Shown: one piece after another, positions 9,091-31,904 of the stretch
How the letters are laid out: each line of letters opens with the position of its first letter
Numbering within the stretch: the first letter of the stretch is position 1
Source: Synechococcus sp. UW140
GTDB lineage: Bacteria > Cyanobacteriota > Cyanobacteriia > PCC-6307 > Cyanobiaceae
Direction of reading: 5' to 3'
DNA length: 64,000 nt
Assembly: GCA_945877115.1 (NCBI GenBank)
Contig: CAMCQR010000002.1
Span: forward strand, 148 to 64,147
The notes under the pieces: generated by a model
What the model was told of the DNA's origin: nothing
What the model saw: only the letters and a program-made list of their open reading frames with translations
The model's database searches: none
Program-made: the position numbers and the translations under genes

Positions 9091-10289
9091 CCTTGTCGAC
9101 CTTTGGCCCCCAGGCTTTGAAAGTCCTCCATGTTATTCCCTCGATCAGTCCCCGCCGGGGTGGACCAAGTCAGGCAGCAATCGAGATGGTGAACGCCCTG
9201 CGGTTGAGCCAGGTCGACGCATCCATTTTGACAACCAATGATGATTGCGAGTCCTTGATGACTGATTTGCCTACGGGAAGTTGGACGACTTATTCTGGCG
9301 TGCCAGTTCTGGCCTTTCCGCGTTGGAGTCCACCCATGGCGGCCTTGAGGGAATTTGCCTTTAGTCCTGGCCTAAATCAGTGGCTCCATAAAAACATAAT
9401 TAATTTTGATCTCCTCCATGTTCATGCCCTGTTTTCGTTCCCTTCGACAGTGGCCATGGTGCATTCACGTCGGGCCCGAGTCCCCTATCTGCTAAGGACG
9501 ATCGGTCAACTCAGCCCTTGGAGCCTAGCTCAAAGCAAAGAGCGTAAACAATTGATGCTGCGTTTAGTTGAAAGGGGTAATATCGACTCAGCTCGATATT
9601 TGCATTTTACGACTACTCTAGAGCGGGATGAATGTTTCGCTGCTTTGCATCAGTCTTTCCCTTCTCTCGTACTCCCCCTCGGCGTGCGCTTACCTTCCCT
9701 TAGGCTAGGGGGAAGGCCGAAAGAAAAGGATCTTCACCTTTTATTCCTCTCTAGACTCCACCCCAAAAAGCAACTGGAAGTGCTACTAAAGGCTCTGGCC
9801 CTGTTTCAGCAAGCTTCCCCTCAATGCGATTGGCAGCTTGACATCGCCGGATCTGGTGAGCCTGCGTACCTTGCCAGCCTTAAGAAGTTGGCCAGTCAGC
9901 TTAGCCTGGATCAGCGATGTCGTTGGTTGGGCCATGTCCAAGGCGATGCAAAAACTTCGTTATTGCAGCAGGCCGATTGGTTTCTGCTGCCATCAGCAGC
10001 CGAAAATTTTGGTATCGCTGTCGTTGAAGCCTTGGCGGCAGGTACACCTGTGATCGTCTCCCCCCAAGTGGCTGTTGCCGAGTTGATTGCGGACGTCGGA
10101 GCCGGCTTAGTCTGTCCAAGCGATCCTGCGGCCCTATGCCAGGTTCTTCTCGGCCACCGCCAGGGCCCCAGTTCAGCCATGAGGCTGGCAGCAAGGTCCC
10201 TGGCGGAAACAAAATTTTCCTGGATTTGTGTCGCAGATCAATTAGCAACAACCTATCGCCAGATACTTCATCCCCCTTTCGTACGATGA
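9087..10289 (+). CDS. Glycosyltransferase family 4
   Basis: VLHVIPSISPRRGGPS, FLSRLHPKKQLE and LPSAAENFGIAVVEALAAG motifs. Confidence 0.9.
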   Translation: MTLSTFGPQALKVLHVIPSISPRRGGPSQAAIEMVNALRLSQVDASILTTNDDCESLMTDLPTGSWTTYSGVPVLAFPRWSPPMAALREFAFSPGLNQWLHKNIINFDLLHVHALFSFPSTVAMVHSRRARVPYLLRTIGQLSPWSLAQSKERKQLMLRLVERGNIDSARYLHFTTTLERDECFAALHQSFPSLVLPLGVRLPSLRLGGRPKEKDLHLLFLSRLHPKKQLEVLLKALALFQQASPQCDWQLDIAGSGEPAYLASLKKLASQLSLDQRCRWLGHVQGDAKTSLLQQADWFLLPSAAENFGIAVVEALAAGTPVIVSPQVAVAELIADVGAGLVCPSDPAALCQVLLGHRQGPSSAMRLAARSLAETKFSWICVADQLATTYRQILHPPFVR

Positions 10290-11704
10290 CCACGCTATTG
10301 CTGCTATTTTTGTTTTCAGGACTGCTGCTTTCCCTGCTGAGTGAAGATTGGAAGTCAGGACTGCTATGGACATTTGCCATAGGTTTTTGCCAGGATCCGA
10401 TCCGCAAGTTGACGCCTGGCCAGCCAAGCACGATGGTCGGTTTTGTTCTGATAGGCTTTTTAATGTGCGCTTTTTCTGTTTATCAAATACGGCGTAAATT
10501 TGATCTTAAATATCTTTTTTGGACATCTCCGCAGCTCTTTGATCTTGTTCCATTTTTTGTACTTTTACTATTTGCTCAATCAGTCAATTCATATTTAAGA
10601 TTTTCAAGCCTACCCCTTGTCTTGATAGGGCTTGCTTTTTATGTGGCGCCCGCTATTGCCCTGTGGATGGGATTTCATGTTGGCCGGGACCCATCTGAAA
10701 TGCGTCGAGTTATCCTTGCCTATTTTATTTTTAATTGTTTTTTCGCCCTTACTGTTCTGCTCGATTTTCAAGGGGTTGATATCCCAGCTTTTGAGGAGGT
10801 GGGTTCGGGTATCCTGATCACATTTGAGGGTGGTTCCAAATCAGGTGCTTCTGGTTTGTGGCGAACCAGTGAAATTGCCTCTTGGCATTTGGCAGCTGCA
10901 GCATGTTTTGGTATAATTTTAACTTTCTCGGAGCGTAAAACAATCTTGCAAATTCTTTATCTATCAGCGGCAGTCGTTTTCTTCATGCTCTCCGTTACTA
11001 CTGGCCGCCGTAAATCTCAGGTTCTGATTGTTGCTTTTCTTGGAATTTATCTCCTGCTTTTTAGTCGTCAAGCAACCTCTGCTTCGCGTGAAAGAATTAT
11101 TATGTCAGTTTTGGGTGCGGCAGGAATTTCTTATGCCTTTGTTTCGTTTTTTTTGATTGATATGCTAGGCTCCAATTTTGAGATTTTTCTTAATCGTGCC
11201 TCTACTTCAGGTGACGATCTTGGCACCCGTCTTCAAAGTCAAGGATTGGATGCCTTTTTCAGAGGTCTTGATGTTGGTAATGGCTTAGGTTTAGGCGTGG
11301 GAGCAGGAACAAACCTGGGCAATTTCAATGCTGGTGCCAACCGCGTCGCCGTACGAAGCCTTGGCTATGTCTCCGAGGGAGGAGGCGGAAGGCTTATTGT
11401 AGAACTTGGCATACCTGGTCTTTTTTTGATTGGCTGGATTCTCTTGGCCTCTTTGCAATTACTTTGGCGTAATTTTAGGTTTATGAGTTCTCTCCCCTCC
11501 GAAGAAAATGCTCTTTTTATCGGCTGCCTCGCATTTGGAGTGGCCAATCTGTTATTTTTCTTTTCGGCGGCTCAGCTGTATAGCGACCCGTTTATTCTTA
11601 TTGTTCTAGGTATTTCAATTGGGCCAATATTAGCCATACCCGTGCTCGTATATAGTAGGATGCAGCATCAAAATTCAAGATCTTCATCGGCACGGGTTTC
11701 GTAG
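10286..11704 (+). CDS. Wzy-like polysaccharide polymerase / O-antigen ligase-family multi-pass membrane protein
   Basis: About 11-12 hydrophobic segments with a periplasmic loop ending GLGLGVG...EGGGGRLIVELGIPG. The ATG at 10286 overlaps the upstream TGA (ATGA). Confidence 0.65.
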   Translation: MTTLLLLFLFSGLLLSLLSEDWKSGLLWTFAIGFCQDPIRKLTPGQPSTMVGFVLIGFLMCAFSVYQIRRKFDLKYLFWTSPQLFDLVPFFVLLLFAQSVNSYLRFSSLPLVLIGLAFYVAPAIALWMGFHVGRDPSEMRRVILAYFIFNCFFALTVLLDFQGVDIPAFEEVGSGILITFEGGSKSGASGLWRTSEIASWHLAAAACFGIILTFSERKTILQILYLSAAVVFFMLSVTTGRRKSQVLIVAFLGIYLLLFSRQATSASRERIIMSVLGAAGISYAFVSFFLIDMLGSNFEIFLNRASTSGDDLGTRLQSQGLDAFFRGLDVGNGLGLGVGAGTNLGNFNAGANRVAVRSLGYVSEGGGGRLIVELGIPGLFLIGWILLASLQLLWRNFRFMSSLPSEENALFIGCLAFGVANLLFFFSAAQLYSDPFILIVLGISIGPILAIPVLVYSRMQHQNSRSSSARVS

Positions 11705-18505: not shown

Positions 18506-19329
18506 TGGTTTCGCCTTCCGGATTCCCCCCTCCGGCGATTGTCGTCGTGGTACCCACCCTCGATTCCTATGCTTTGCTGCCCCGGTTGGTTTCCTCTCTC
18601 CAGCAGCAAACCTGGCCCCATTGGAGCGTTATGTTTGTCGATGGTCCCAGTCAGCCAGCTCACCGCCGCTGGATTGATAATCTCTGTGGGTGTGATCCCC
18701 GCTTCCAATGGCGGCCCCAGGATCCAACCGAGCAGGGCATCTTCGGGGCCATGAATCAAGGCTTCGCCTTGGCGAGCCATGCGGATACCTGGCTGTTGTT
18801 CTGGGGGAGTGATGACTGGGCCGCCTCTCCCCAGGTCTTTGAGATGTTGGCCAGGGGTCTGCGGGGGGCCTGGAGTCGGGGCGCCGATCCCGATCTCCTC
18901 GTCGCCACGGGTCGCTATGTCGAGCCCGGCGATGCTGCCGCTGGAAAAACTACACCAACCCTCAGGCGTCGCAGTATTTTTCGCTGGCGCCACTCCTATC
19001 GCCGCTCCCTTTTTCTGGGCTCCACGCCACCCCATCAAGCCACCCTTATCGGCCCGGGGGCCCGACGTCATCTGGCACGTTATGCCGACGGTTTTCTTCT
19101 GTCTGCAGATCTGGATTACTTTCTTCAACTTTCCCGCTGGCCCGATTTGGAGGTCGAATGCATGGACCTTGAGCTGGTTCACATGCAGTCGGGGGGGGTG
19201 AGCGGGCGCGAATCGCGACGGCGTTTTCAGGAGGTGCGCCGTGCCTACGGCCGGGCTTTTGGTTGGCTTTGGTGGCTGCCCTATGGATTCCGCTATGCCC
19301 AACGGTTGGCCAGCCTGTTCAGCCCATGA
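18505..19329 (+). CDS. Glycosyltransferase family 2 (WcaE-like)
   Basis: VVVPTL, GIFGAMNQG, FWGSDDW, PPHQATL and SADLDYFL motifs. Confidence 0.85.
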   Translation: MVSPSGFPPPAIVVVVPTLDSYALLPRLVSSLQQQTWPHWSVMFVDGPSQPAHRRWIDNLCGCDPRFQWRPQDPTEQGIFGAMNQGFALASHADTWLLFWGSDDWAASPQVFEMLARGLRGAWSRGADPDLLVATGRYVEPGDAAAGKTTPTLRRRSIFRWRHSYRRSLFLGSTPPHQATLIGPGARRHLARYADGFLLSADLDYFLQLSRWPDLEVECMDLELVHMQSGGVSGRESRRRFQEVRRAYGRAFGWLWWLPYGFRYAQRLASLFSP

Positions 19330-20219
19330 GTGATGTTCTGCTCTTCGGTGCTACCAGTCCATCGGGTCTGGCCTTCCTTCAGGGAGCAGGATCCCTGAAG
19401 GTCACGGTGGCTGGCCGGCGACGGCCGCAAGGGTTTGCCGATGGGCCCTTCCAGCTTTGTGATCTGCGGGCGGCCGACTCCCTTGAACACCCACTGGCGG
19501 GAACATTGGTGAGTTTTGCACCCCTGTGGGATCTCGCCCCTTTTCTGGCACGGTTGGCGGAGCAGCATCCGGAGCGGCTGGCCGCAGTCAGGGCGGTGGT
19601 GGCCTGTTCTTCCTCCTCGGTGATCACCAAACGCTTTGCCTTCAACCGCTTCGATCGCGATCTGGTGCAGCGCCTCACCGCTTCCCAGGACCTGCTGATC
19701 CGCACCTGTAAAGATCTGGACCTGCCGTGCAGGATTGTGGCGCCCACTTTGATTTACGGCCAGGTCGGGGCCTACGGCGACCGCAACCTGAGCCAGTTGC
19801 TGCAATGGATGCGTCGATTTCCCTTACTACCCCTACCAGCCGATCCCGGCTTACGCCAACCCATCCATGCCAGTCAATTGGCAGCTGTGGTCCGAACGGT
19901 GGCCATGGACCTGGTTTGCTCACCCGGAACTCCAACGGGTGACGTCATCGCGGTAGGCGGTGATGACACTATTACCTATCACGAATTACTGCTACGTCTC
20001 CAACAACAATGTGACCCGTCTGATCGGGCCCGGTGTTGTCGCCTCGTGACGATACCTGCGTGGTTGTTCCGTGCTGTGGCGTCCCCCCTGCTGGTGGCGG
20101 CTCCCAAAGGCTTTGAAGCGGTGATGCGGATGCAGGTTGATCTTGCCGGCTTCATCCCGGCCCACTGGCTCTTGGGTGAGGATCCGCGGCCATTCCCAGT
20201 GCTGCCTCTTGTGCATTGA
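19326..20219 (+). CDS. Atypical NAD-dependent epimerase/dehydratase (SDR-like)
   Basis: LLFGATSPSG is a degenerate Rossmann motif; PTLIYG and RQPIHASQLA are present. No clear YxxxK. The ATG at 19326 gives an ATGA overlap. Confidence 0.7.
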   Translation: MSDVLLFGATSPSGLAFLQGAGSLKVTVAGRRRPQGFADGPFQLCDLRAADSLEHPLAGTLVSFAPLWDLAPFLARLAEQHPERLAAVRAVVACSSSSVITKRFAFNRFDRDLVQRLTASQDLLIRTCKDLDLPCRIVAPTLIYGQVGAYGDRNLSQLLQWMRRFPLLPLPADPGLRQPIHASQLAAVVRTVAMDLVCSPGTPTGDVIAVGGDDTITYHELLLRLQQQCDPSDRARCCRLVTIPAWLFRAVASPLLVAAPKGFEAVMRMQVDLAGFIPAHWLLGEDPRPFPVLPLVH

Positions 20220-20794
20220 TGCGTGGTTATTCCCTTGGGCGGGTTGTGCCAATCTTGGGGCTTGGATTGGTCTTTTGGTGGCTGTGGCCTTGGATCCCGA
20301 TGCCGAAGGCAGGGGGCGGTCCCCAGGTCATCACCGTTTTTGTCGAGGATCCCTGGCGAACGTTCAGCGCCATCCAACTGCATCAAAGGCGACCGGGCTC
20401 CATTCTTGTCATGCAAGGATCCCAACGCTTTCAGGAGATCAACCGCAGTCAACTGGTGCGCTATGGGCAGTGGCCGCCTGCGATGGAGCCCCCTGTCATT
20501 CTCACCGCAGGTTGTGACACGTTTGGTCAATTGATTGCCCTGGCGCTCTGGTTGAAACAGAAACCGAACCATGGAGATGTCACCATTGTTACTAGTCCGG
20601 CCCATCTGGGGCGGGCCCTGGCAATTGGACGCATCGTTTTGGGCTCCCTGGGGTGGTCAGTTAGCGGGGTCAAAGCTGCCACAGGAGATAATCGGCCCGA
20701 AAAACCCTTGCGAACCGTCCGGGACCAGGTCCGCGCCCAGATCTGGCGGGCCACCCGCTGGAATCCCATTCCCGTGAATCGTCCCTGTCTGTGA
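20216..20794 (+). CDS. YdcF/ElyC (DUF218)-like protein with N-terminal membrane anchor
   Basis: N-terminal TM, then DTFGQ (aligning to the DUF218 'nT.en' motif) and IVTSPAHLGRA (the 'VTs..Hm.RA' motif). Confidence 0.65.
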   Translation: MMRGYSLGRVVPILGLGLVFWWLWPWIPMPKAGGGPQVITVFVEDPWRTFSAIQLHQRRPGSILVMQGSQRFQEINRSQLVRYGQWPPAMEPPVILTAGCDTFGQLIALALWLKQKPNHGDVTIVTSPAHLGRALAIGRIVLGSLGWSVSGVKAATGDNRPEKPLRTVRDQVRAQIWRATRWNPIPVNRPCL

Positions 20795-21890: not shown

Positions 21891-23864
21891 ATGACTTTCA
21901 ACTTTCTCCCACCACCAGCCAAATCGCCAGAATTTCCCAAGGTCTCTTTCCTGTCTGGATCACCTTTATCTGAAACTCGTTTGCTCAGGTCTTCTAAATC
22001 CTTGGTCCTGCTGCGGCGTTTAGTGCTGCTTGGTTTCGACAGCCTTTTAATTGTGATTGCCTTTCTAGGCTCACTGCTTTTAGTCAGGTCGCCCGATACT
22101 CTCTTTTTTGCCACATCCAAACTACTCCCTTTAGGTGTGGTGAGTGGCCTTGCCGTCCTACTTTTTTCGGGCTGGTATCGAGGCTTGACCCGTTACGCCG
22201 GGAGTCATTCTCTTTATGGGTTGATTCCCAGAACTGGGACCATGGTCATTTTGATGATGGTATTCAGTTCTTTATTGTCCATCAATCTACCCCTTGGTTC
22301 CTGGTTTCTGTACTGGACTTTCTTTACTGGAGGCGCTATAGCTACTAGAATTATAATGCGTGACTTGTTAATACAGCAACTATCACGTCAAAATTTTATC
22401 CGATCTCCAGAACCCGAAGCCAATGTCACCATGATTTACGGTGCCGGTTCATCTGGAATGGCACTACTCACTGCTCTTCGTAATGATCCAAGATTTCGCA
22501 TTATTGGGTTTTTGGACGATGATTCTATTCTGCATGGTCGAACTCTCCAAAATCTACGCATTGATAATCCATCCCGTTTACCGGTGCTCATTGAGCGCCA
22601 TAAAGTGTGTAAGATTCTATTGGCCTTGCCTTCCGTATCCCGAGCTCGCAAACGTTTATTGGTCGATCAGTTGACCCGTTCTGGTCTTGAGGTTCTTTCG
22701 ATTCCCTCCCTATCTCAGTTGGCTGGTAAGGAGAGAATTGTCAGTGATCTTCAAACAGTCTCTATTGAAGATTTGTTAGGACGTGAACCTTCTAATCCAG
22801 ACCCTATGCTTCTTGAAGCAAGTGTATTGGGAAAAGTGGTTTTAGTTACCGGAGCAGGGGGGTCTATCGGTAGTGAGCTTTGTCGTCAAATCATTTCACT
22901 GGGAGCAGCTAAAATACTATTATTAGAGCAGAATGAATTTGCTCTTTATTCCATAGACAATGAACTGCGTTCCAAAAATAATACAATACCTGTCTACCCA
23001 ATTCTTGGGGACGTTAGTAATTCTAAGCCTTTAACCGCTCTTTGCATTAAGCACGGCGTTCAAACCTTATTTCATGCAGCAGCTTATAAGCATGTTCCTA
23101 TGGTTGAGTCGAATATATGTTCCGGAGTATCAAATAATATACGCTCGACTCGATCAGTCATTGATGCCGTTCTTGCAGCCCGTGTTGAAAGATTGACACT
23201 TATTTCTACTGATAAGGCAGTTAGGCCTACTAATGCCATGGGTGCAAGTAAGCGCATCTGTGAAATGATGATTCAATCTGCAGCTACTTCTTGCGGACCT
23301 AACGGCCCCGTCATGACGATGGTTAGATTTGGTAACGTGCTCGGATCTTCTGGATCAGTCATTCCACTATTTCATAAACAGATTTCCCTAGGAGGTCCGG
23401 TCACCGTTACCCATCCTGCGGTTACACGCTATTTTATGACAATCCCGGAGGCTGTTCAATTGGTTTTACAAGCAACTGGCATGGCCGAAGGAGGAGACTT
23501 GTTTCTCCTTGACATGGGCGAGCCAGTTAGAATTGCCGATCTTGCCCGTCAAATGATCGAATTATCTGGCCTTCGTTTACGAGATGAAAAAAACTCAGAC
23601 GGAGATATAGAAATTGAATATACTGGTTTGCGACCAGGTGAAAAATTATATGAAGAACTTTTAATCGATACCCAAGATCAGCCTACTCAGCATCCTTTAA
23701 TTCGACGCGCTTGTGAGCTTAACCCACCTGACAATCATCTTTTACCACTTTTAAAAGAGCTTGAAGATGCCCTAACTCGTTGGGATGAAAAAGATACAAG
23801 TGATTTGCTCGTAAAGCTGGTGCCAGAGTATCATCGTGAAAATCATGTCCACGAATCTAACTAA
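21891..23864 (+). CDS. capD: CapD/WbpM/PglF-family membrane-bound UDP-GlcNAc 4,6-dehydratase
   Basis: N-terminal TMs, then IYGAG, VTGAGGSIGSEL, HAAAYKHVP, STDKAVRPTNAMGASK, VRFGNVLGSSGSV, RYFMTIPEA and GLRPGEKLYEEL. Confidence 0.93.
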   Translation: MTFNFLPPPAKSPEFPKVSFLSGSPLSETRLLRSSKSLVLLRRLVLLGFDSLLIVIAFLGSLLLVRSPDTLFFATSKLLPLGVVSGLAVLLFSGWYRGLTRYAGSHSLYGLIPRTGTMVILMMVFSSLLSINLPLGSWFLYWTFFTGGAIATRIIMRDLLIQQLSRQNFIRSPEPEANVTMIYGAGSSGMALLTALRNDPRFRIIGFLDDDSILHGRTLQNLRIDNPSRLPVLIERHKVCKILLALPSVSRARKRLLVDQLTRSGLEVLSIPSLSQLAGKERIVSDLQTVSIEDLLGREPSNPDPMLLEASVLGKVVLVTGAGGSIGSELCRQIISLGAAKILLLEQNEFALYSIDNELRSKNNTIPVYPILGDVSNSKPLTALCIKHGVQTLFHAAAYKHVPMVESNICSGVSNNIRSTRSVIDAVLAARVERLTLISTDKAVRPTNAMGASKRICEMMIQSAATSCGPNGPVMTMVRFGNVLGSSGSVIPLFHKQISLGGPVTVTHPAVTRYFMTIPEAVQLVLQATGMAEGGDLFLLDMGEPVRIADLARQMIELSGLRLRDEKNSDGDIEIEYTGLRPGEKLYEELLIDTQDQPTQHPLIRRACELNPPDNHLLPLLKELEDALTRWDEKDTSDLLVKLVPEYHRENHVHESN

Positions 23865-23865
23865 A

Positions 23866-24807
23866 ATGGATCTTTCCTCAATTCCAATCAAATTAAAATC
23901 ATTCTGTTTGAGATATGTTCCTCCATTAACAGCGCGTAATTTGTGGCTGTTCATAGCAAGTGCTGTCGCAATCCAAAATATCGTTGTATTTTATACAAGT
24001 CAAAATGAATCAATGGCCGTATTTTCCGTCTTAATTTGGGGCGGTGCGGTCATCTGCATGGAAGATCTCATTGAAAAAGTGCACCCTCAGCCCAATCCCG
24101 CAATAGCTATCCTGGCCTCAATAATATTGTTATTTGTCTTATTAAGAACGTCGCTCATATTACATGCCGATGGTGTTCTATTCCTTTTAGCACCATTAGC
24201 TGCTGTTGCGCTGGTTCTATTAATCGAAAAACCACATTCTATATTTAAATTTCGAGATTCGCTTTTATGCATGCTTTTATTTCCTGCTAATGCGTTGCTA
24301 AATCGTGTCATACCTGAATATCCTATGAGCTTGCTCACGGCACGACTGTCTGCCTTTTGGTTGTCTATTTTAGGTTTAGATCCATTGGTTAATGGTCGAG
24401 AAGTACTTTTAGAAGGCGGAGGTGTCACTGTTTTGGGCGCATGCAACGGTCTTGATATGATTTCTCAAGTAATGTGTATATCATTTATTTTCTTACTTGC
24501 TTTTCGTTTAAGGTCGTTAACTTCACGAATTTTAATAACTTTGCTTGCCCCCTTAGTTGGATTGTTTTCAAACACACTTCGCATAGCCTTGCTCACAATA
24601 TTTAGTGCAAATGGTTCGGGTAAGGGCTATGGATTTTGGTTTGACTTCTTTCATAAGGATACAGGATCTTTAATTTTTTCAGGTCTAGCAGTTTTTATTT
24701 TTGGAACTATTTACATGAGATTTCTTGAGCACGAGCTTGGACCTGAATCTCTTATCGTTGAATCAAATCAAGATTCAACTCCTAATCAAGAAACAGGATC
24801 TTTATGA
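23866..24807 (+). CDS. crtA: Cyanoexosortase A-like (exosortase/archaeosortase family) membrane transpeptidase
   Basis: Multi-TM protein with the Cys-Arg-His triad: VTVLGACNGL, SNTLRIALL and FDFFHKDTGSLIFS. The ATG at 23866 follows the capD stop. 'crtA' here means cyanoexosortase A, not a carotenoid gene. Confidence 0.8.
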   Translation: MDLSSIPIKLKSFCLRYVPPLTARNLWLFIASAVAIQNIVVFYTSQNESMAVFSVLIWGGAVICMEDLIEKVHPQPNPAIAILASIILLFVLLRTSLILHADGVLFLLAPLAAVALVLLIEKPHSIFKFRDSLLCMLLFPANALLNRVIPEYPMSLLTARLSAFWLSILGLDPLVNGREVLLEGGGVTVLGACNGLDMISQVMCISFIFLLAFRLRSLTSRILITLLAPLVGLFSNTLRIALLTIFSANGSGKGYGFWFDFFHKDTGSLIFSGLAVFIFGTIYMRFLEHELGPESLIVESNQDSTPNQETGSL

Positions 24808-25457
24808 ATCTCAAAAGTTTTTACGGAATCTTGGCTTTGCTTTCAACAGTAGCGGCAACTCAGTCAATGATTTTTCCGCGTTGGCCAGATGCCTCAAAAA
24901 TTTCTACTGAAAAAATAGATCAATTCATGGCAAATATTTCTTCTAATGGGCACACTGTGAAACCTTCTACTACGCTAGGCAATCACTCAGATTATAACGT
25001 GTCCCACACATCTATAATTAGCTCAAAGATTAACTCTAATTCAGATCTATTATTTACTAACGTGCAAGTACGTGATCGAAAAGATCTTAGTGTTTCCCAT
25101 ATTACCGAGTCTATTAAATCACTTCAATTGACGAAGTCTGCCATTATGAGTAAGCAACCTCCTTATTTCCTATCTGATACACAACCATCGGGAACAACCT
25201 ATCAAACCTGCTTTGTTCAAGGTAATCCTTGGCCGTTTGGTTTGGCCGTCAATCAAGATACGCTAACTTTAGCCGTGGATCAAGCAAAGTCGCTCGAAAC
25301 TAATCTGGCAATTAAACGCTTTCTCGGTCTCAGTCCAAGTCGTAATTATCAATGCATTTTAATTACCCTTAAAACAACTTTGCCTATCAAAGAAGGCAAC
25401 CAAATGTGGCTTGACGTGCTTCATCAATTTCAAAATACATTTAACAATAAAAAGTAA
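24804..25457 (+). CDS. Cyanoexosortase-associated protein (EpsI-like partner)
   Basis: ATGA-coupled to the exosortase; N-terminal anchor. C-terminal TCFVQG...FLG...RNYQCILITL...W pattern resembles cyanoexosortase A-associated proteins, from memory. Confidence 0.6.
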   Translation: MNLKSFYGILALLSTVAATQSMIFPRWPDASKISTEKIDQFMANISSNGHTVKPSTTLGNHSDYNVSHTSIISSKINSNSDLLFTNVQVRDRKDLSVSHITESIKSLQLTKSAIMSKQPPYFLSDTQPSGTTYQTCFVQGNPWPFGLAVNQDTLTLAVDQAKSLETNLAIKRFLGLSPSRNYQCILITLKTTLPIKEGNQMWLDVLHQFQNTFNNKK

Positions 25458-25461
25458 ATTT

Positions 25462-26007
25462 ATGGCTTTTTGGAATAAACTACAAAAATTATCAAGCAAC
25501 TTGGATAAGCCTGTGCAGACACAGGATCCTCTATATACACAGCCTTTGATTTATAGTTGGATACTAAATAATCAATTGGCTATAGGACCAATGCCAAGAA
25601 GAACATTCCAATGGAATCAGCTAGAAGATGTAGGATTCAAGACCAGATTCAGCTGCTGCTATCCTCTGGAGAATGTATTTGCACCTATTCCGGCTGATTG
25701 GTTTTCTGCTAATGTTCCTTTGCCTGACCATAGAAAGCAGGAGGCCCTTGATATTGATAGACTAAGGTTAGCCTTGAATACTGCTGAAGAGTTAGTGATT
25801 AATTCAGCACCTGTATACTTACATTGCTTTGCTGGACAAGAAAGATCATCCTTATTGGCTGTTGGGTTAACAGCAAGGATTAAAAAGATTGATGTTTTTT
25901 CAGCATTAGAATGGGTAAGACGCTGTCATCCAATATCTGCACCAAGTTATGAATACCTTGAAATTTTGGAAAATATTTTAAAAACTGATTCAAGATTTCT
26001 AAATTAA
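25462..26007 (+). CDS. Dual-specificity protein phosphatase (Cys-based PTP)
   Basis: P-loop VYLHCFAGQERS (HCx5R), upstream PLPDH general-acid Asp and SALEWVRRCHP helix. Confidence 0.88.
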   Translation: MAFWNKLQKLSSNLDKPVQTQDPLYTQPLIYSWILNNQLAIGPMPRRTFQWNQLEDVGFKTRFSCCYPLENVFAPIPADWFSANVPLPDHRKQEALDIDRLRLALNTAEELVINSAPVYLHCFAGQERSSLLAVGLTARIKKIDVFSALEWVRRCHPISAPSYEYLEILENILKTDSRFLN

Positions 26008-26011
26008 GTTT

Positions 26012-28558
26012 TTAATTATCTTTATTGCGACGGAAAATTTTAGATATCCAATTATTTTTTTCTACTGACTTCTTGATACGATTAGATGTTGGCAATCCAT
26101 AGTTTGTAGGTTTTTCCGTTGATAGCTTATCTTTTTTGGCTTCAGTGGTACCAAGCCCTGCATCAATATAGCGCCCTATACCTGAATTGGTATAACGGTC
26201 TGAGTTGGGTGATGCTGACTTAGTCATGTACGAGTCACGATATCGCTTGATGTAATTGCTTATACCATATGATTTTGAACTTTGCTTGCCGTAACTATCT
26301 GTATATGCATAAGCATAGTGATAATAATATCCATATTCATAGCCGTAATCGTTGAGGCGGCTTGGGAAGTTGACTTGGTTGCAAATGATCCCCAAAAGAT
26401 CCACGCCAGTCGCTTTAATGCGACGTGCTGCTTGAGGTGCGAGATTGCGATTGACTTTTCCGAGGCCAACCAGAAAGAGTATGCCATCTAATTTTTCACC
26501 CAATAGAATTGGGTCAGATAGCATTAAACAGGGTGGTGCATCAAATAGAATAATGTCGTAATCAGACATTGCCCTTAACTCATTAATTACTTCGGCGCAC
26601 CTAGTGGAATTAAGAAGTTTGGCCGGGTCTGGTGGCTTAGGGCCGGCCGGCAGCACATCAAGATTATCTTGTAGGCTGATGATCAGTGAACTGATAGGAA
26701 TACTAGAGTCTGAAAGAACAGACGAAAAGCCTTCTCCTGAAGCCATTCCAAGATATCGTGCTTGCATCGGCAGACGCATGTCAGCATCTACAACGAGAAC
26801 TTTAAGGCCTAGGTCTGCTAATGTTCGTGCAAAAATACTTACTGATGTTGATTTGCCTTCACCTTGAGTTGAGGATGTAACTCCTACAAGTCTGATGTTA
26901 TGATCAGCCCTCAGTAGGCGAAAGGTTGTAAAGAGACTGCGTAAAGATTCTTTAATTGCAAATCTTTCGCTAGCAGACATTTTGGAAATACTTGTAGCAA
27001 TATCAACTCCCGGTTCTAGGGGTAGATAGGGTATCAAGCCTAGGACAGGAAGTTGTAATTCTTTTTCGGCTTCCATAGGAGTATGGAAAACGTTATCTGT
27101 TTTTTCACGAAGTATTGCAGCTCCAACACCAGAGAGCAACCCAAGCATTATGGCCTGTAAAAGATTCTTTTTGATGTCAGGCTGAACTGGAGTGTCTCCA
27201 AAGTTGGGGGGGGAAATTACTTGCCAAGGAGTGATAAAGCGTGATCGTTCAAGCTTATAATTTTCTTTAGCTCTTAGATAGGATGCATAGTTTTCTTTTG
27301 CGCTAGAAAGCTTTGAGACTATTTTTTCATATTCTCTTAGCATTTTAGGACTGTTTTTAAAATTTCGATTATATAACATAATTTGTCTATTTACTTCGTC
27401 TTGCTGAGATTTGTTGGCAAATAATTTGACTCGAATAGAGTCGGATTTTTGCGACTCTACCACTGGGATTAGGGCATTTTTCCTGGCTAAAATAGATTGT
27501 ACGATAGGGGAATCTTCTTTGTAGGTTGCCCTGGCTTGGGCAAGCTGTAATTCAAACTCGTTGAGCTGATCTGATGGCGTTTTAACATCATTTATATTTT
27601 CGGCTATTTTTTCTTGTCTTCCAGGAATCAGTGCGCTATTGTTGCCAAGTTGATTGATCGCTGATGGGGCTCCACTTGGAGTAAAGGTTAGGTAACCTGA
27701 CTCGACAGATTTGAGTTGACTTTCGAGTTGGGCTTGCTCAACTTGTAAGCTTTGCCACTCATTAGAAAGGGAATTGCGACGATTTTCTATCGTGGAGACA
27801 ACGGCAATTGGATCCACCATTTTATTGGCTTCACGGAAGCGGCTTAGTTGGGTTTCCAGTGAAGCAACTTCACGTAAAATTGCCGGCGCTTGTTGGTCAA
27901 GATATTTGACGCCCGAATCAAGGGTTGCTTGGCGCTGGGAGAGAGAAAAGGCTACATAATCGTTCGCTAATGCGGCAAGTACGGCTTTACCTTTGGTTGG
28001 ATCTGGCCAACGCAAATCCACTGTAATCACATTTGGAGCACCAGGAATAGTTTCCATATTGAGATTTTTGGCAATCTCTTCGCTCGATAGTCCAAGTCTG
28101 GTGGCAACGGGTGATATTAGATAGGGGCTGCGGAGAAGTACGATGAGACTGGGTACATCTATTCTCTGTTTATAACGTGCAATGGCTTCTAACTTCCCAC
28201 CGTCTCCAGCTACAGGCGAGCCGCCTTCGTCAAATGGGCTGCTGATTTGAAGCTGAAAAGCTCCTTGGTAAACGGGACTGAAAATCCTTTCGCGAATTGT
28301 GTTGACAGCAAGGGCACCTGATACAAGTGCAGATGTGAAAAGGAAAAGGGTTTGTCGGCGCTTGATGGTGCGCAGAATATTTTGAATTCCACCTTCTCTG
28401 CCATCGCCAGCCAAAGGCGACATACCTTGTTGGAGTTGTTCAGTGGGGCCGCCTTCCAGGGATCGGGTACCCATTGGCACCAGTCCATCTAAAGTAGGGT
28501 CGCCCCCAGGCGCTGGAAGCAGGGGGGCACCGGCTCGGGTCACGGCATTTCGTTTCAA
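26012..28558 (-). CDS. wzc: Wzc / GumC-family polysaccharide co-polymerase tyrosine kinase
   Basis: Two TMs flank a coiled-coil periplasmic domain. Walker A TQGEGKST, VDADMR, Walker B ILFDAPP and Tyr cluster DYGYEYGYYYHYAYAY are present. Confidence 0.92.
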   Translation of the reverse strand: MKRNAVTRAGAPLLPAPGGDPTLDGLVPMGTRSLEGGPTEQLQQGMSPLAGDGREGGIQNILRTIKRRQTLFLFTSALVSGALAVNTIRERIFSPVYQGAFQLQISSPFDEGGSPVAGDGGKLEAIARYKQRIDVPSLIVLLRSPYLISPVATRLGLSSEEIAKNLNMETIPGAPNVITVDLRWPDPTKGKAVLAALANDYVAFSLSQRQATLDSGVKYLDQQAPAILREVASLETQLSRFREANKMVDPIAVVSTIENRRNSLSNEWQSLQVEQAQLESQLKSVESGYLTFTPSGAPSAINQLGNNSALIPGRQEKIAENINDVKTPSDQLNEFELQLAQARATYKEDSPIVQSILARKNALIPVVESQKSDSIRVKLFANKSQQDEVNRQIMLYNRNFKNSPKMLREYEKIVSKLSSAKENYASYLRAKENYKLERSRFITPWQVISPPNFGDTPVQPDIKKNLLQAIMLGLLSGVGAAILREKTDNVFHTPMEAEKELQLPVLGLIPYLPLEPGVDIATSISKMSASERFAIKESLRSLFTTFRLLRADHNIRLVGVTSSTQGEGKSTSVSIFARTLADLGLKVLVVDADMRLPMQARYLGMASGEGFSSVLSDSSIPISSLIISLQDNLDVLPAGPKPPDPAKLLNSTRCAEVINELRAMSDYDIILFDAPPCLMLSDPILLGEKLDGILFLVGLGKVNRNLAPQAARRIKATGVDLLGIICNQVNFPSRLNDYGYEYGYYYHYAYAYTDSYGKQSSKSYGISNYIKRYRDSYMTKSASPNSDRYTNSGIGRYIDAGLGTTEAKKDKLSTEKPTNYGLPTSNRIKKSVEKNNWISKIFRRNKDN

Positions 28559-28669
28559 ATCCTACCGACTCTAGGCCCAACTCGGGACCAAAGTGCTGCG
28601 TTGGTGATCGCTTTCGCTTTCGGCCTCAGACTCTCCAGTTGTTATCGGTTAAGGTTCCCCAACGAACCT

Positions 28670-29926
28670 ATGGTTTTTGTGAGGAACTCTAGTCTAGACA
28701 ACCAGTCTCAAGTCCCCTTGCCTGGCCTGCCGGCACCCCAGGCACATTGCTTGGGGCGCTGGGTGGCCTTATCTGCGACCGTTTCCCTAGTGTGCTCGCC
28801 TGGGGGTCTTATTGCGGCTCCCCTGACAGGCACTCCTGCAGGGGCAGATACCGGCATGCCAGCGTTGCGTATTCAGAACATTCATACGCCACCACCCAAT
28901 TCATCTGGGCCTGGATATCTGGAACGCAGGCCAGCTCCATTGCCGATGCCGGCTCCTGAGCGATCGCTTTCTCTCCCCGAGCTTTATAGCGATCTCTACA
29001 CGCTTGGTCCGGGTGACACACTTCAGCTCAATTTTTTGGATCCTGAAGCTAAGTCCCTCAATGGCACATTTGGTATTTTAGCTGATGGCACAACCACATT
29101 GCCATTGGTTGGTTCTGTCCAATTGATTGGTCTCACCATCGGTCAAGCAACCCGTTGGTTGACGTCGCTTTATTCCAAGCAGCTAGTCCGTCCTCAGTTA
29201 ACTCTAACTCTCACGGCTCCCAGGCCCGTAAAAGTGACGATAGTGGGAGAAGTGTCCCGTCCCGGCCTCTATCCTCTTGGGTCTATTTCTAATCCTGTAG
29301 AGGCCATTCAAACGGCAGGGGGTGTTACTTTAAATGCAGATGTTCGTAATATACGTCTGCGACGACTGGCCGGTTCGGCTGGCGCTCAAAAAGAGACAAC
29401 GCTCAATCTTGCAGACCTGTTTGCCAATGGTAATCAACTGCAAAATCCGGTGTTGTTTGATGGAGACACTATTATCGTTTCCCGTGCCATCCAGCCGGTA
29501 CCAGAGGAGGTCTTAGCGATTGGCCAAACGAATTTGGCGCCACTGTCCATCAGTGTGACTGTGATCGGGGAGGTGAAGTCGCCTGGGACGGTTTCCTTGC
29601 CTTCCAATACTCCACTCATCGAAGCTCTTTTCCGATCGGGAGGCTTGATTAGGCGTCGCGCCCAGGCCAACAATATTGAATTAGTTCGTTTTAATCGAAA
29701 CGGCACTACGACCCGTCAGATGTTTGCCTATAAAGAAGATTTACCTGTCTCTAATCTCACGAATCCACCCTTACGCAATGGTGACACTATTATTGTTCGC
29801 AGTAACCTCTATGGCAAGGCCTTGAATTTGTTCAATGATCTGGCCGAGCCCCTCGGCGCTATCAATAGTATCTTCAGCTATGCTAATTATTGGAATTACT
29901 GGAATAATAACAATAATAATAACTAG
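28670..29926 (+). CDS. wza: Wza/OPX polysaccharide export protein with SLBB domains
   Basis: Poly_export YTLGPGDTLQL...DGTTTLPLVG; repeated SLBB motifs (V.GEV.RPG, L.DGDTIIV, LRNGDTIIV). Start is 28670 (ATG) or 28601 (TTG). Confidence 0.9.
   Translation: MVFVRNSSLDNQSQVPLPGLPAPQAHCLGRWVALSATVSLVCSPGGLIAAPLTGTPAGADTGMPALRIQNIHTPPPNSSGPGYLERRPAPLPMPAPERSLSLPELYSDLYTLGPGDTLQLNFLDPEAKSLNGTFGILADGTTTLPLVGSVQLIGLTIGQATRWLTSLYSKQLVRPQLTLTLTAPRPVKVTIVGEVSRPGLYPLGSISNPVEAIQTAGGVTLNADVRNIRLRRLAGSAGAQKETTLNLADLFANGNQLQNPVLFDGDTIIVSRAIQPVPEEVLAIGQTNLAPLSISVTVIGEVKSPGTVSLPSNTPLIEALFRSGGLIRRRAQANNIELVRFNRNGTTTRQMFAYKEDLPVSNLTNPPLRNGDTIIVRSNLYGKALNLFNDLAEPLGAINSIFSYANYWNYWNNNNNNN
29885..29923 (+). repeat. 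Coding simple repeats: (AATTAYTGG)x2 plus (AAY)x7, encoding NYWNYWNNNNNNN
   Basis: Read directly: AATTATTGG AATTACTGG AATAATAACAATAATAATAAC TAG. Confidence 0.85.
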
Positions 29927-29946
29927 CGGTAACAATATTTGCTGAC

Positions 29947-31218
29947 ATGATTTTTGTCCTTTCCATCTTCTTAATTGCCATGAGTCATTTTAGCCACCCT
30001 CTTAATACCCGAGCCGTGGCTTGGGCCCTTCTCTCCCAGTCCCTCTGGCTCCCAGTTGTAGGCATTGATCTACACGACCGCTGGCAAGCGGAGTTCCTCC
30101 GTTCTCGGCCCCTCGCCCTCCCCCAAGCCGAGTTGGCGGCTTCCCTGCCCCCGGCTCCTTTGGTGAATCCGGTCGAAAGGTCTCCCCTTTCCCGGGAAGC
30201 TCAATCGAATACTTCAGCCTCTGGAGTCCTGCTGGGCGCCTCTTCTCCGGCAGCCCATGCCCAGGTAGGACACCTGCTTGACCCAGCTGAACAGGTTGCT
30301 CCGGTCGGCCAGTATGTGATGACCCAGCGACCGTTCAAGTTCGCTACGCCCACTGCCTCCCCCCATGCAAGTGGCACCCCGTCCCCAGTCGTGGCTCCCC
30401 TTGCCAGCGCCTCCCGCTACGACCTGTTGCAGCGTTCGTTCACGCCTGCGGAGCTCCTAGGGGGGACCTTGACATTGAAGGATCTGCAGGCTGCCCCAAC
30501 CCCGTCGGTCGCCCTTTCTGAACGGGCCCGTCTTGCCCGTTCTTCCGATCCGTTGGCTCCCCTGCCCCAGGCCTGGCGTGAACCGATGCGTCGCGCCCTC
30601 AATGCAATCAATATCCCTTCGCCCCTGAAGCCCTCCGCCCAGCTGGAGGCCGCCCGCGTGGTCCACGTGCCCTCCATGAAGGTCTCCCGTGCGACGGCAG
30701 TCCCCTTGGTGTTGCAGTCCGATGGCAGCGTTGATCTGCTGTCAAAACCGGAGGATCCGGCAGTCCTGGAGGCTATCCGCGGTTGGAGTGGTCGCCAGGA
30801 TCTCCCCGCTTCGGGTCGTCTGGCGCCCGCGATCGTGCATGTTGAACCTCTCAAGGAGTTGCCACCGCTGAGTTCGATTTCGGTTAAGACCCAGGCTAAG
30901 CCCCATTCTTCAGGCCCCATGGGGAAGGCCTCGCCCGCTTCGCCGGCCATGGGTTCGCCAGACCCAGCGGTTGCGCCCACTGCAGAGGCTTCGGTCCCGG
31001 CTCGTGTACCCGTTGTTGCTCCGGTCTCCGAACTCCGTGGCGAGCCCCCTGCGCCCCAACCGCCCGTGGCGGCGGAAGCCCCGAGTCCCGCCCCGCCCTC
31101 CGCAGCCCCGGCTCCGTCGGCTCCTGTGGCTCCAGCCCCCGAGGTGCCTCCGGCGCCCGCGGCCAGTGCCCCTCAGGCCTCATCCCCGGCCCCTTCCTCG
31201 CCCCAGCCTGCTTCGTGA
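29947..31218 (+). CDS. Hypothetical protein with N-terminal hydrophobic segment and long Pro/Ala-rich C-terminal tail
   Basis: 423-aa ORF (alternative ATG at MSHFSH) with a globular-looking middle and an APAPSAPVAPAP-type tail; TGATG-coupled to the next gene. Confidence 0.7.
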   Translation: MIFVLSIFLIAMSHFSHPLNTRAVAWALLSQSLWLPVVGIDLHDRWQAEFLRSRPLALPQAELAASLPPAPLVNPVERSPLSREAQSNTSASGVLLGASSPAAHAQVGHLLDPAEQVAPVGQYVMTQRPFKFATPTASPHASGTPSPVVAPLASASRYDLLQRSFTPAELLGGTLTLKDLQAAPTPSVALSERARLARSSDPLAPLPQAWREPMRRALNAINIPSPLKPSAQLEAARVVHVPSMKVSRATAVPLVLQSDGSVDLLSKPEDPAVLEAIRGWSGRQDLPASGRLAPAIVHVEPLKELPPLSSISVKTQAKPHSSGPMGKASPASPAMGSPDPAVAPTAEASVPARVPVVAPVSELRGEPPAPQPPVAAEAPSPAPPSAAPAPSAPVAPAPEVPPAPAASAPQASSPAPSSPQPAS

Positions 31219-31904
31219 TGTTCCCCTCTCTTGGTGCCAGGTTGACCATGGGCGTTTCTGTTGCCCTGGCGGCAGCCACCCCATCGGTTTTCGCCCAGGG
31301 CCTCGTACCTCTGGCACCTTGGCATCAGGTGGCTCCTCAGGCCCCTGCAGCCTCCTGGATCCCCTTTGCTGATCCACGAGTCAATCCCCTGGCCTGGCGT
31401 CCGGTATCCCGTTACGACGCAGTGCCTCCACCCCAACAACCTGAAGCGGCTTTAGAGACAACCGTTCCCGTGGTCGACCCTGCGACGCAGCCCGGGCCGA
31501 TCTTTGGCATTGGAACAGGTATCCACTCCTTTGCTGGGGATCGCACCAGTCCCGTGGTGACCGGGCGCCTTGGCTATGCCTTCGGTGAGGGGTTCGGGGT
31601 TTCCTTACGGCCCACTTACATCTTCTTGAACAGGGACCTGCAGGGGGTTGATAACAGCGATGGAGCTTTTCAGATGCCCCTCACCCTTGATTTGTTCCCC
31701 CGTGCGCTCTTCTCGCCCTACATCGGAGCTGGCCTGGCCACCAATACCGATACTAGCCACACGACCGATGCCATGCTCACGGGGGGCATGGACCTAAATC
31801 TCGTGCGCCATCTATCCCTTGGGTTGAATATTAATTATATCTTCCAGCCCGCACAAAACGATAGTGACTGGGAGGCCATGGCTTTGCTTTATTTTCGTTT
31901 TTAG
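31218..31904 (+). CDS. Small outer-membrane beta-barrel protein (OmpA/OmpW-like, about 8 strands)
   Basis: Signal peptide ending VFAQ, Pro-rich spacer, alternating beta-strands (GRLGYAF, FSPYIGAGLA, LGLNINYIF) and C-terminal LLYFRF (terminal Phe, BAM-type signal). Confidence 0.75.
   Translation: MFPSLGARLTMGVSVALAAATPSVFAQGLVPLAPWHQVAPQAPAASWIPFADPRVNPLAWRPVSRYDAVPPPQQPEAALETTVPVVDPATQPGPIFGIGTGIHSFAGDRTSPVVTGRLGYAFGEGFGVSLRPTYIFLNRDLQGVDNSDGAFQMPLTLDLFPRALFSPYIGAGLATNTDTSHTTDAMLTGGMDLNLVRHLSLGLNINYIFQPAQNDSDWEAMALLYFRF

Follow-up and report, generated by a model that had tools for sequence, protein, structure and literature searches.

The stretch of DNA considered here (the window: 64 kb, positions 148–64147 of contig C2) belongs to a picocyanobacterial metagenome-assembled genome (MAG) of 2.71 Mb in 185 contigs, 95% complete, and carries between 21.9 and 31.9 kb a compact gene block built around an exosortase. 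In order, the block encodes a capD-like dehydratase/epimerase, the exosortase, a partner protein, a predicted Cys-based protein phosphatase, a Wzc-type tyrosine kinase, a Wza-type export protein, a Pro/Ala-rich protein, and a small outer-membrane protein (OMP). A first-pass annotation had named these genes; all of them were found where it had placed them, and family scans and coordinates agree that the block is real. Very probably the block forms the core, for processing and export, of a cyanoexosortase A (CrtA)/PEP-CTERM system in a variant particular to this lineage, and it is situated at the 3' end of a Wzx/Wzy-type polysaccharide cluster.

The exosortase reading frame is open from a GTG codon, with the ATG of Met11 as the probable start. 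Its product has at least six strongly hydrophobic segments, as a polytopic membrane protein, and is placed in the exosortase superfamily by exosortase model PF09721 (81.6 bits, cutoff 25.7) and by the TIGR04178 signature (42.5 bits, cutoff 23). The lack of any exosortase match among hidden Markov models (HMMs), which had been named beforehand as the outcome that would undo the assignment, is therefore not what was observed. The Cys/Arg/His triad that had been read as intact is confirmed as Cys203 (GACNG), Arg249 (NTLRIA), and His273 (FFHKD), each conserved in at least 97% of 113 homologs, as are Asn204, Gly205, and Asn246. No other exosortase is present in the whole genome. Among the subfamily models TIGR03763 (CrtA) scored highest with 103.5 bits, followed by CrtC (58.9), CrtB (32.7, cutoff 300), and XrtA (26.6), but the curated CrtA cutoff of 150 bits was not reached, and so the TIGR03763-type label proposed earlier is right about the nearest subfamily and overstated as to membership. 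Four true CrtA proteins, with TIGR04153 encoded immediately downstream, were used as controls and scored 220–326 bits, and six other members of the present clade scored 80–126 bits. The protein is named 'exosortase/archaeosortase family protein [Cyanobium]' at NCBI and 'cyanoexosortase A' at JGI. Clear orthologs (above ~40% identity) were found in about 27 of 36 same-genus genomes, the remainder being mostly incomplete MAGs.

The partner has an N-terminal helix anchor, a periplasmic alpha/beta domain, and two invariant Cys residues. It had been described as EpsI-like; an exosortase-coupled partner gene is indeed present, but neither the EpsI and TIGR04153 models nor any other Pfam or NCBIfam model matched it directly, and every one of its 78 close homologs is annotated as 'hypothetical'. 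No match to TIGR04153 was obtained in the source genome or its 36 same-genus relatives. In seven other cyanobacterial genera the gene for it directly follows that of a CrtA-like exosortase, which is the position of the partner here. When a shallow 17-sequence profile was compared with TIGR04153 by hhalign, the result was marginal (E = 0.055). The comparison became decisive only once an exhaustive profile search had supplied diverse homologs (82 partner representatives). Among these, a transitive test of the ten weakest matches gave only one weak bridge, to TIGR04153 at 6e-4, and a 75-sequence profile aligned with six TIGR04153 proteins over 177 near-full-length columns with a probability of 96.4% and E = 1.1e-9 (reversed control, E = 0.5). 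The partner is accordingly predicted to be a remote homolog of the cyanoexosortase A system-associated protein (TIGR04153). Its AlphaFold2 (AF2) model (pLDDT 75.6, pTM 0.73) had no significant match in a Foldseek search of the PDB.

Substrates were sought in the window and across the genome. An observation made from the letters alone, that no open reading frame (ORF) within the 64 kb ends in a tag composed of a PEP motif, a transmembrane (TM) segment, and basic residues, was upheld: on the window contig a tag HMM, described below, gave only noise (at most 7.6 bits) with no tagged ORF, and a generic scan for C-terminal Pro followed by a hydrophobic stretch and a basic cluster returned nothing. 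The Pfam PEP-CTERM model PF07589 had 0 matches genome-wide at E<=10, a result that taken alone would have wrongly favored a lack of substrates. A six-frame search with TIGR02595 gave 14 weak matches clustered on a few contigs, three of them at or just over the cutoff of 16 (best 17.6 bits); 12 of the 14 lay at the extreme C terminus of an ORF and shared a common consensus. The HMM built from these 12 tails retrieved about 40 ORFs at 22–54 bits, and a second profile (A1) retrieved 41–43. In total, 39 tags satisfy the strict definition and up to 43 C-terminal tags were counted, spread over 23 contigs, none of which is the window contig. The substrates thus lie elsewhere in the genome, which is one of the possibilities that the first-pass annotation had allowed.

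The other possibility raised there, a non-canonical tag, also proved partly correct. The 39 strict tags lie 2–15 residues ahead of the stop codon and have the consensus VP[G21/A12/S5/T1]PLP[LVI][LF]G[AVI][AG]AAFG[WYF]SR[RQK]LR[RQK]R[ILV], in which G9 and R21 never vary and P2 and R18 are present in 38 of 39. The position equivalent to the Glu of Pro-Glu-Pro is occupied by Gly (21), Ala (12), Ser (5), or Thr (1) and never by Glu (0/39). The architecture is that of PEP-CTERM proteins, with a Pro-rich motif, a hydrophobic segment, and an Arg/Lys cluster at the C terminus of proteins with signal peptides, and the tag is a PEP-CTERM variant nearly invisible to PF07589 and TIGR02595. True-CrtA genomes carry canonical VPEPTT…RRRK tags that score 20–34 bits with TIGR02595, compared with at most 17.6 in the present genus. 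It had been anticipated that many ordinary PEP-CTERM proteins in the genome would make this a standard CrtA system; tagged proteins are numerous, but by the curated models they are not ordinary ones. Six substrates were also searched with the curated models at E<=10, and none of the other sorting-signal models fitted. Most carriers have a Sec-type signal peptide with an AxA site, and their mature parts consist of about 50% S/T/G/N/A with low charge; in nine large substrates no Pfam domain was found. The mature parts behind the 39 tags fall into 33 mutually unrelated groups, so that the tag behaves as a portable signal, and a short C-terminal module common to unrelated secreted proteins is the hallmark of a sorting signal.

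Some further features of the carriers are worth recording. One of them (G000:C16:35503-36774, minus strand) belongs to the ScyD/ScyE family (NF033206, 204 bits); in Nostoc, ScyD/E/F are reported to be putative PEP-CTERM proteins, and scytonemin production to need the exosortase CrtB (PMC12188702). The substrate genes are partly clustered, with four at C28:19932-27912 (three of them tandem paralogs) and six at C13:2602-15956, and these clustered genes have a GC content of 0.47–0.62, under the genome mean, which suggests variable surface-protein islets. One substrate homolog (P0212) is annotated by JGI as a 'MYXO-CTERM domain-containing protein' and the others as 'hypothetical', with no precomputed Pfam domain, which shows that current pipelines misread or miss the VPxPLP tag.

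The tag was present in 35 of the 36 same-genus genomes, in 2–52 copies, and in none of 24 genomes of other cyanobacterial genera. A family-level sample of 151 genomes from 64 genera, in which an ortholog of the exosortase was defined by at least 33% identity, contained 19 genomes with both ortholog and tag, 1 with the ortholog only, 3 with the tag only, and 128 with neither (Fisher's exact p = 4.8e-20). Tag and exosortase ortholog are distributed alike over the phylogeny and are confined to Cyanobium and a few sister genera. In other genera they are also neighbors, with a tag 1 kb from the exosortase in G202, tags on both sides of it in G113, and tagged ORFs within ~8–18 kb of it in G158, G129, G140, G169, G070, and G198. 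The 11 genomes that possess only distant exosortase paralogs (26–34% identity) have no VPxPLP tags, so that the distant paralogs presumably serve another class of signal. One or two extra paralogs of this kind occur in G003, G004, G007, G009, G013, G017, G019, G021, and G034 and in several other genera; a few carry in-frame stops, and the source genome has no such paralog. In two tag-bearing genomes the exosortase ortholog itself is interrupted by one in-frame stop (G113:C15:11639-12490 and G017:C29:13447-14385; TGA in one and TAA in the other), and these may be sequencing errors or recent pseudogenization.

Table 1. Genes of the sorting and export block, with positions in the 64-kb window
Feature	Position	Strand	Family evidence
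capD-like membrane-anchored nucleotide-sugar 4,6-dehydratase/epimerase	21891..23864	+	PF02719 379.5 bits; N-terminal CoA_binding_3 / EPS_sugtrans-like region
Exosortase, CrtA-like, distinct subfamily	23866..24807 (ORF 23836-24807)	+	PF09721, TIGR04178
Exosortase partner, 217 aa	24804..25457	+	no direct family match; predicted remote TIGR04153 homolog
Putative Cys-based protein phosphatase, predicted DSP/small-PTP fold, cytoplasmic	25462..26007 (ORF open from 25411)	+	P-loop and PLPD motifs
Wzc-type polysaccharide co-polymerase/BY tyrosine autokinase (PCP-2a)	26012..28558	-	TIGR01007 114.6 bits
Wza-type outer-membrane polysaccharide export protein (OPX)	28601..29926	+	PF02563 and two SLBB domains
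Orphan membrane-anchored Pro/Ala-rich protein	29980..31218 (ORF open from 29947)	+	no family match
Small OMP beta-barrel with signal peptide	31215..31904	+	PF13505 OMP_b-brl 32 bits (cutoff 28.7)

The block (Table 1) is preceded, from 1 to 21.7 kb, by a glycosyltransferase-rich polysaccharide cluster that includes a WecA-like initiating transferase, an epimerase, an AsnB-like amidotransferase, and a carbamoyltransferase, and it is followed by era and trmD/ispF; it is therefore the 3' end of a ~30-kb Wzx/Wzy-type surface-polysaccharide cluster within the core genome. The capD-like gene, syntenic in relatives, is the final biosynthetic gene ahead of the sorting and export genes. Neighborhood conservation, which the first-pass annotation had proposed as a check, was compared across relatives, and both cassette and flanks are kept: the order g19263, g20216, WecA-like gene, capD, exosortase, partner, phosphatase, wzc (opposite strand), wza, orphan, OMP, era was found in 8/8 same-genus loci. 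The cassette order is identical in freshwater MAGs (Cyanobium sp. from Lake Mendota, a Lac Pavin MAG, and an uncultured cyanobacterium), and synteny of the cassette extends to all full-length relative loci that were compared. Loci labeled 'Synechococcus sp. UW140' keep the exosortase, partner, wzc, wza, and orphan genes, and in these the phosphatase gene was not detected at the site. A label of strain-specific island was not borne out by this conserved core cassette.

The base composition of the locus is unusual. Over capD, exosortase, partner, phosphatase, and wzc (window positions 22000–28000) the GC content is 0.37–0.44, compared with ~0.64 for the genome, and this had first suggested a horizontally acquired island. 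That explanation was ruled out by the synteny in the full-length relative loci compared and by the many orthologs of GC 0.62–0.72: the low-GC version is common to the closest relatives (the Lake Mendota and Lac Pavin MAGs; L022, L027, L046–L048, and L050), and other congeners have syntenic orthologs at 0.62–0.72 with a protein identity of only 52–62%. Low GC is therefore a feature of the allele and not evidence of a foreign island, and the pattern points to an old divergent allele class, or to allelic replacement by recombination, at a surface-structure locus. Several conserved ORFs of the polysaccharide cluster belong to no Pfam family (10136–11704, 741–2778, and 19263–20794, all on the plus strand). 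Among them are a 522-aa ORF within a low-GC stretch and the pair g19263/g20216, which always stands ahead of the WecA-like gene in relatives and whose second member, g20216, is a weak DUF218 match. A contig assigned to an 'uncultured Klebsiella sp.' MAG (CAYFMB010000012.1, L056) encodes the present cyanobacterial exosortase at 50% identity and is probably mis-binned or mislabeled.

The export genes are more conventional. Wzc scores above the TIGR01007 cutoff of 108 bits and has the features of a PCP-2a bacterial tyrosine (BY) kinase: two TM segments (70–88 and 465–484) flank a periplasmic domain, the cytoplasmic P-loop kinase domain contains GEGKST as its Walker A motif, and residues 736–777 hold the C-terminal Tyr cluster YGYEYGYYYHYAYAY; it also gives sub-threshold matches to the XrtA-associated TyrKin and ChnLen models. 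Wza combines a Poly_export domain with SLBB domains (PF02563 49, PF10531 78.6, and PF22461 73 bits, all over cutoff), and its scores with TIGR03028 (87.9 bits) and TIGR03027, the XrtA/PEP-CTERM system export protein (84 bits), are under cutoff. Directly after wza in all relative loci compared stands the gene for the orphan protein, a 423-aa ORF with Met12 as probable start, which gives 412 aa. It divides into four parts, namely a TM helix (conserved), a linker (disordered), an alpha/beta domain of ~100 aa (conserved), and a tail rich in Pro and Ala, and its conserved core in an alignment of eight orthologs reads FTPAELLGG…DPLAPLPQAWREPMRR…ARVVHVPS…LQSDGSVD. Confidence in the AF2 model is confined to the TM helix and residues ~195–292, and neither a Pfam or NCBIfam match nor a PDB fold match by Foldseek was found for it. 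The small OMP, whose C-terminal end is …YFRF, lies downstream of the orphan in most same-genus loci, and the position of the orphan gene between wza and the OMP gene suggests an envelope-spanning accessory role.

A working scheme for the system can be drawn by analogy with known exosortases and archaeosortases. The tag would hold each substrate in the cytoplasmic membrane after Sec export; the exosortase Cys would attack at or near the VPxP motif and remove the TM segment and basic tail, and the mature protein would then be released or transferred to an acceptor, to reach the cell surface or the exopolysaccharide (EPS) layer. The Wzc/Wza pair would polymerize and export polysaccharide made by the upstream glycosyltransferases, with Wzc alternating between phosphorylated and dephosphorylated states, a cycle that the phosphatase of dual-specificity (DSP) fold may join, as its adjacency to wzc suggests.

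One could suppose instead that there are no PEP-CTERM-type substrates, that the exosortase acts on a lipid- or glycan-linked polysaccharide intermediate, and that the tagged proteins are tail-anchored or handled by another enzyme. The embedding of the exosortase in a glycan cluster, the window of 64 kb free of tagged ORFs, and the fact that exosortase acceptor chemistry in general is not known (PMC12188702) would all fit, but we regard the idea as very improbable, given that the enzyme is the sole exosortase of the genome, that it co-occurs with the tag (p = 4.8e-20) and is adjacent to it in other genera, that the tag keeps the PEP-CTERM architecture, and that a tail anchor in 33 unrelated secreted families is hard to account for except as a sorting signal. 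Neither an exosortase without protein substrates nor an unusual integrated machine, both of which had been put forward, is supported, and EPS linkage is a known theme, exosortase loci being linked to Wza, chain-length, and Tyr-kinase genes (PMC12188702). At the other end lies an ordinary CrtA system, with low scores that reflect drift in a fast-evolving, compositionally biased lineage and with neutral replacement of Glu by Gly, Ala, or Ser. That CrtA is the top-scoring subfamily, that JGI calls the protein cyanoexosortase A, that the partner appears to be a TIGR04153 homolog, and that the tag architecture is otherwise unchanged all speak for it, and yet it seems to us unlikely. A clean gap separates true CrtA (220–326 bits) from the tested clade members, and as these all score 80–126 bits, high-GC congeners included, composition is not the cause of the low score; Glu has been lost in 39/39 tags, the motif continues with a second LP, and the basic stretch is fixed as S-R-R-L-R-R-R. 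Such joint divergence of enzyme, partner, and tag suggests co-evolved specificity. A bolder extension is conceivable and, in our judgment, quite improbable: that the three have co-diverged into a VPxPLP-CTERM class in which the exosortase transfers the ~40 substrates onto a nascent polysaccharide or lipid-linked precursor and Wza exports the conjugate, the loss of Glu, the orphan, and the OMP reflecting an altered acceptor or route and the phosphatase tuning Wzc.

A separate question is whether the phosphatase is a dedicated Wzc phosphatase that replaces Wzb. Starting probably at Met18, it has a PLPD general-acid motif and an HCFAGQERS P-loop, scores 20.4 bits with PF00782 (DSPc), under the 33.5 cutoff, and has as its closest PDB entries the small archaeal-type protein tyrosine phosphatases (PTPs) 9e9l and 5z5b (E = 3e-4 to 1e-3), with the PxPD and HCxxGxxRS motifs aligned. 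It is DSP-like and not a Wzb of the low-molecular-weight PTP (LMW-PTP) family, for which PF01451 found no match anywhere in the source genome; a CpsB-type PHP enzyme was likewise not detected in that genome. A review of BY kinases names LMW-PTP and PHP phosphatases as the only partner classes (PMC9800525), which made a third class of Wzc phosphatase an attractive proposal, and the intact PxPD and HCX5RS motifs and the tail-to-tail arrangement with wzc in 8/8 same-genus loci agree with it. We now consider it doubtful. One conserved, unlinked LMW-PTP (~124–142 bits) was found in 22 of 24 same-genus genomes, so that its absence here, shared with the close relative G002, most likely stems from a gap in the assembly or from a recent loss within the sub-lineage, and the notion that the DSP replaces an absent Wzb was downgraded on this account; what then connects the phosphatase with Wzc is conserved adjacency. 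DSP-fold enzymes can, moreover, act on non-protein phosphoesters, and the gene was not found at the site in the UW140-type loci.

Several points weigh against the lineage-specific CrtA/PEP-CTERM variant that we favor, or against parts of it. The exosortase stays below the curated CrtA cutoff and the tags fail the curated PEP-CTERM models (PF07589 and, for nearly all tags, TIGR02595), so that by formal definitions this is not a standard CrtA system. Four genomes of the family-level sample are discordant, one with an exosortase and no tags and three with tags and no exosortase, although three of the four are only 83–89% complete. Gene content, motifs, and co-distribution were observed, and the predicted cleavage, transfer, and surface localization are carried over from the exosortase family; the putative functional link between the exosortase and the Wza/Wzc polysaccharide is suggested by conserved synteny. 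For the link between phosphatase and Wzc, the unlinked LMW-PTP of most congeners and the UW140-type loci count in the same direction. Even so, enzyme, partner, and tag are all recognizable as putative components of a CrtA system that have diverged past the curated definitions.

Freshwater picocyanobacteria (Cyanobium and relatives) are major primary producers in lakes, and the surface of their cells determines how they aggregate, sink, are grazed, and adsorb phages. What emerges here is a variant of the CrtA/PEP-CTERM system, neither substrate-less nor a new machine, and the puzzle of an exosortase with no visible substrate is resolved because about 40 dispersed substrates carry a tag without Glu. 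The tag defines a previously unannotated surface or secreted proteome of 2–52 proteins per genome, which would be linked to a single processing enzyme in a capsule/EPS export locus. Standard pipelines do not see the system, since the substrates are annotated as 'hypothetical' (one as MYXO-CTERM) and the enzyme bears a generic name; a dedicated pair of HMMs, for the tag and for the exosortase clade, would mend this gap. To our knowledge, Nostoc CrtB is the only cyanobacterial exosortase studied so far, and the single exosortase gene offers a clear genetic handle on the role of exosortases in unicellular cyanobacteria. The system would also be a natural case of PEP-CTERM sorting that can do without the Glu in its name, and this constrains models of how exosortases recognize their substrates. 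A search of one literature library returned no paper that pairs PEP-CTERM with Cyanobium and none on a picocyanobacterial exosortase; new here are the substrates, the definition of the tag, the co-occurrence statistics, and the predicted homology of the partner to TIGR04153.

Comparison with known systems places the locus closest to CrtA (TIGR03763/TIGR04153/TIGR02595/PF07589). The two share the best-matching exosortase subfamily, the Cys/Arg/His residues, a partner gene immediately downstream, a restriction to cyanobacteria, and dozens of dispersed, unrelated, Sec-exported substrates with Pro-rich, hydrophobic, and Arg-cluster C termini. They differ in the exosortase score (103.5 bits against a cutoff of 150, and 220–326 in true CrtA), in a partner that the TIGR04153 model does not see, in the tag (VP[G/A/S]PLP…SRRLRRR instead of the canonical VPEPTT…RRRK, with no match to PF07589 and almost none to TIGR02595), and in the limitation of the present variant to one family, where it is found in Cyanobium and a few sister genera. 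The proteobacterial XrtA/EpsH-EpsI loci likewise place an exosortase and its partner within an EPS locus together with genes for a Wza-like protein, a chain-length determinant, and a Tyr kinase, and both Wza and Wzc of the present locus match the corresponding models (TIGR03027, TIGR03007, and TIGR03018) below threshold. In contrast to those loci, the XrtA model gives only 26.6 bits, a single Wzc unites chain-length determinant and kinase, and in place of the PrsK/PrsR/PrsT regulators, which were not seen here, there are a phosphatase of predicted DSP fold and the orphan TM/Pro-Ala protein.

The experimentally studied cyanobacterial exosortase is CrtB of Nostoc punctiforme, with 35 PEP-CTERM proteins including ScyD/E/F, for which the proposed model runs from Sec export, through tethering in the membrane by way of the tag, to processing and a function associated with EPS (PMC12188702). 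A single exosortase and a Wza-type gene in the locus are common to both systems, but the CrtB model gives 32.7 bits here (cutoff 300), CrtB substrates carry the canonical PEP motif, and the host is filamentous and motile, so that the hormogonium motility and scytonemin phenotypes may not apply to picocyanobacteria. With the Wza-Wzc-Wzb systems of group-1 capsule and colanic acid the locus shares a PCP-2a Wzc with Walker A motif and Tyr cluster, an OPX-type Wza, and adjacent, divergent wza and wzc genes. It departs from them in that the linked phosphatase has a predicted DSP/small-PTP fold and not that of LMW-PTP, that Wzc has an extra C-terminal tail of ~70 aa, and that two more conserved envelope proteins, the 412-aa orphan and the small beta-barrel OMP, follow wza.

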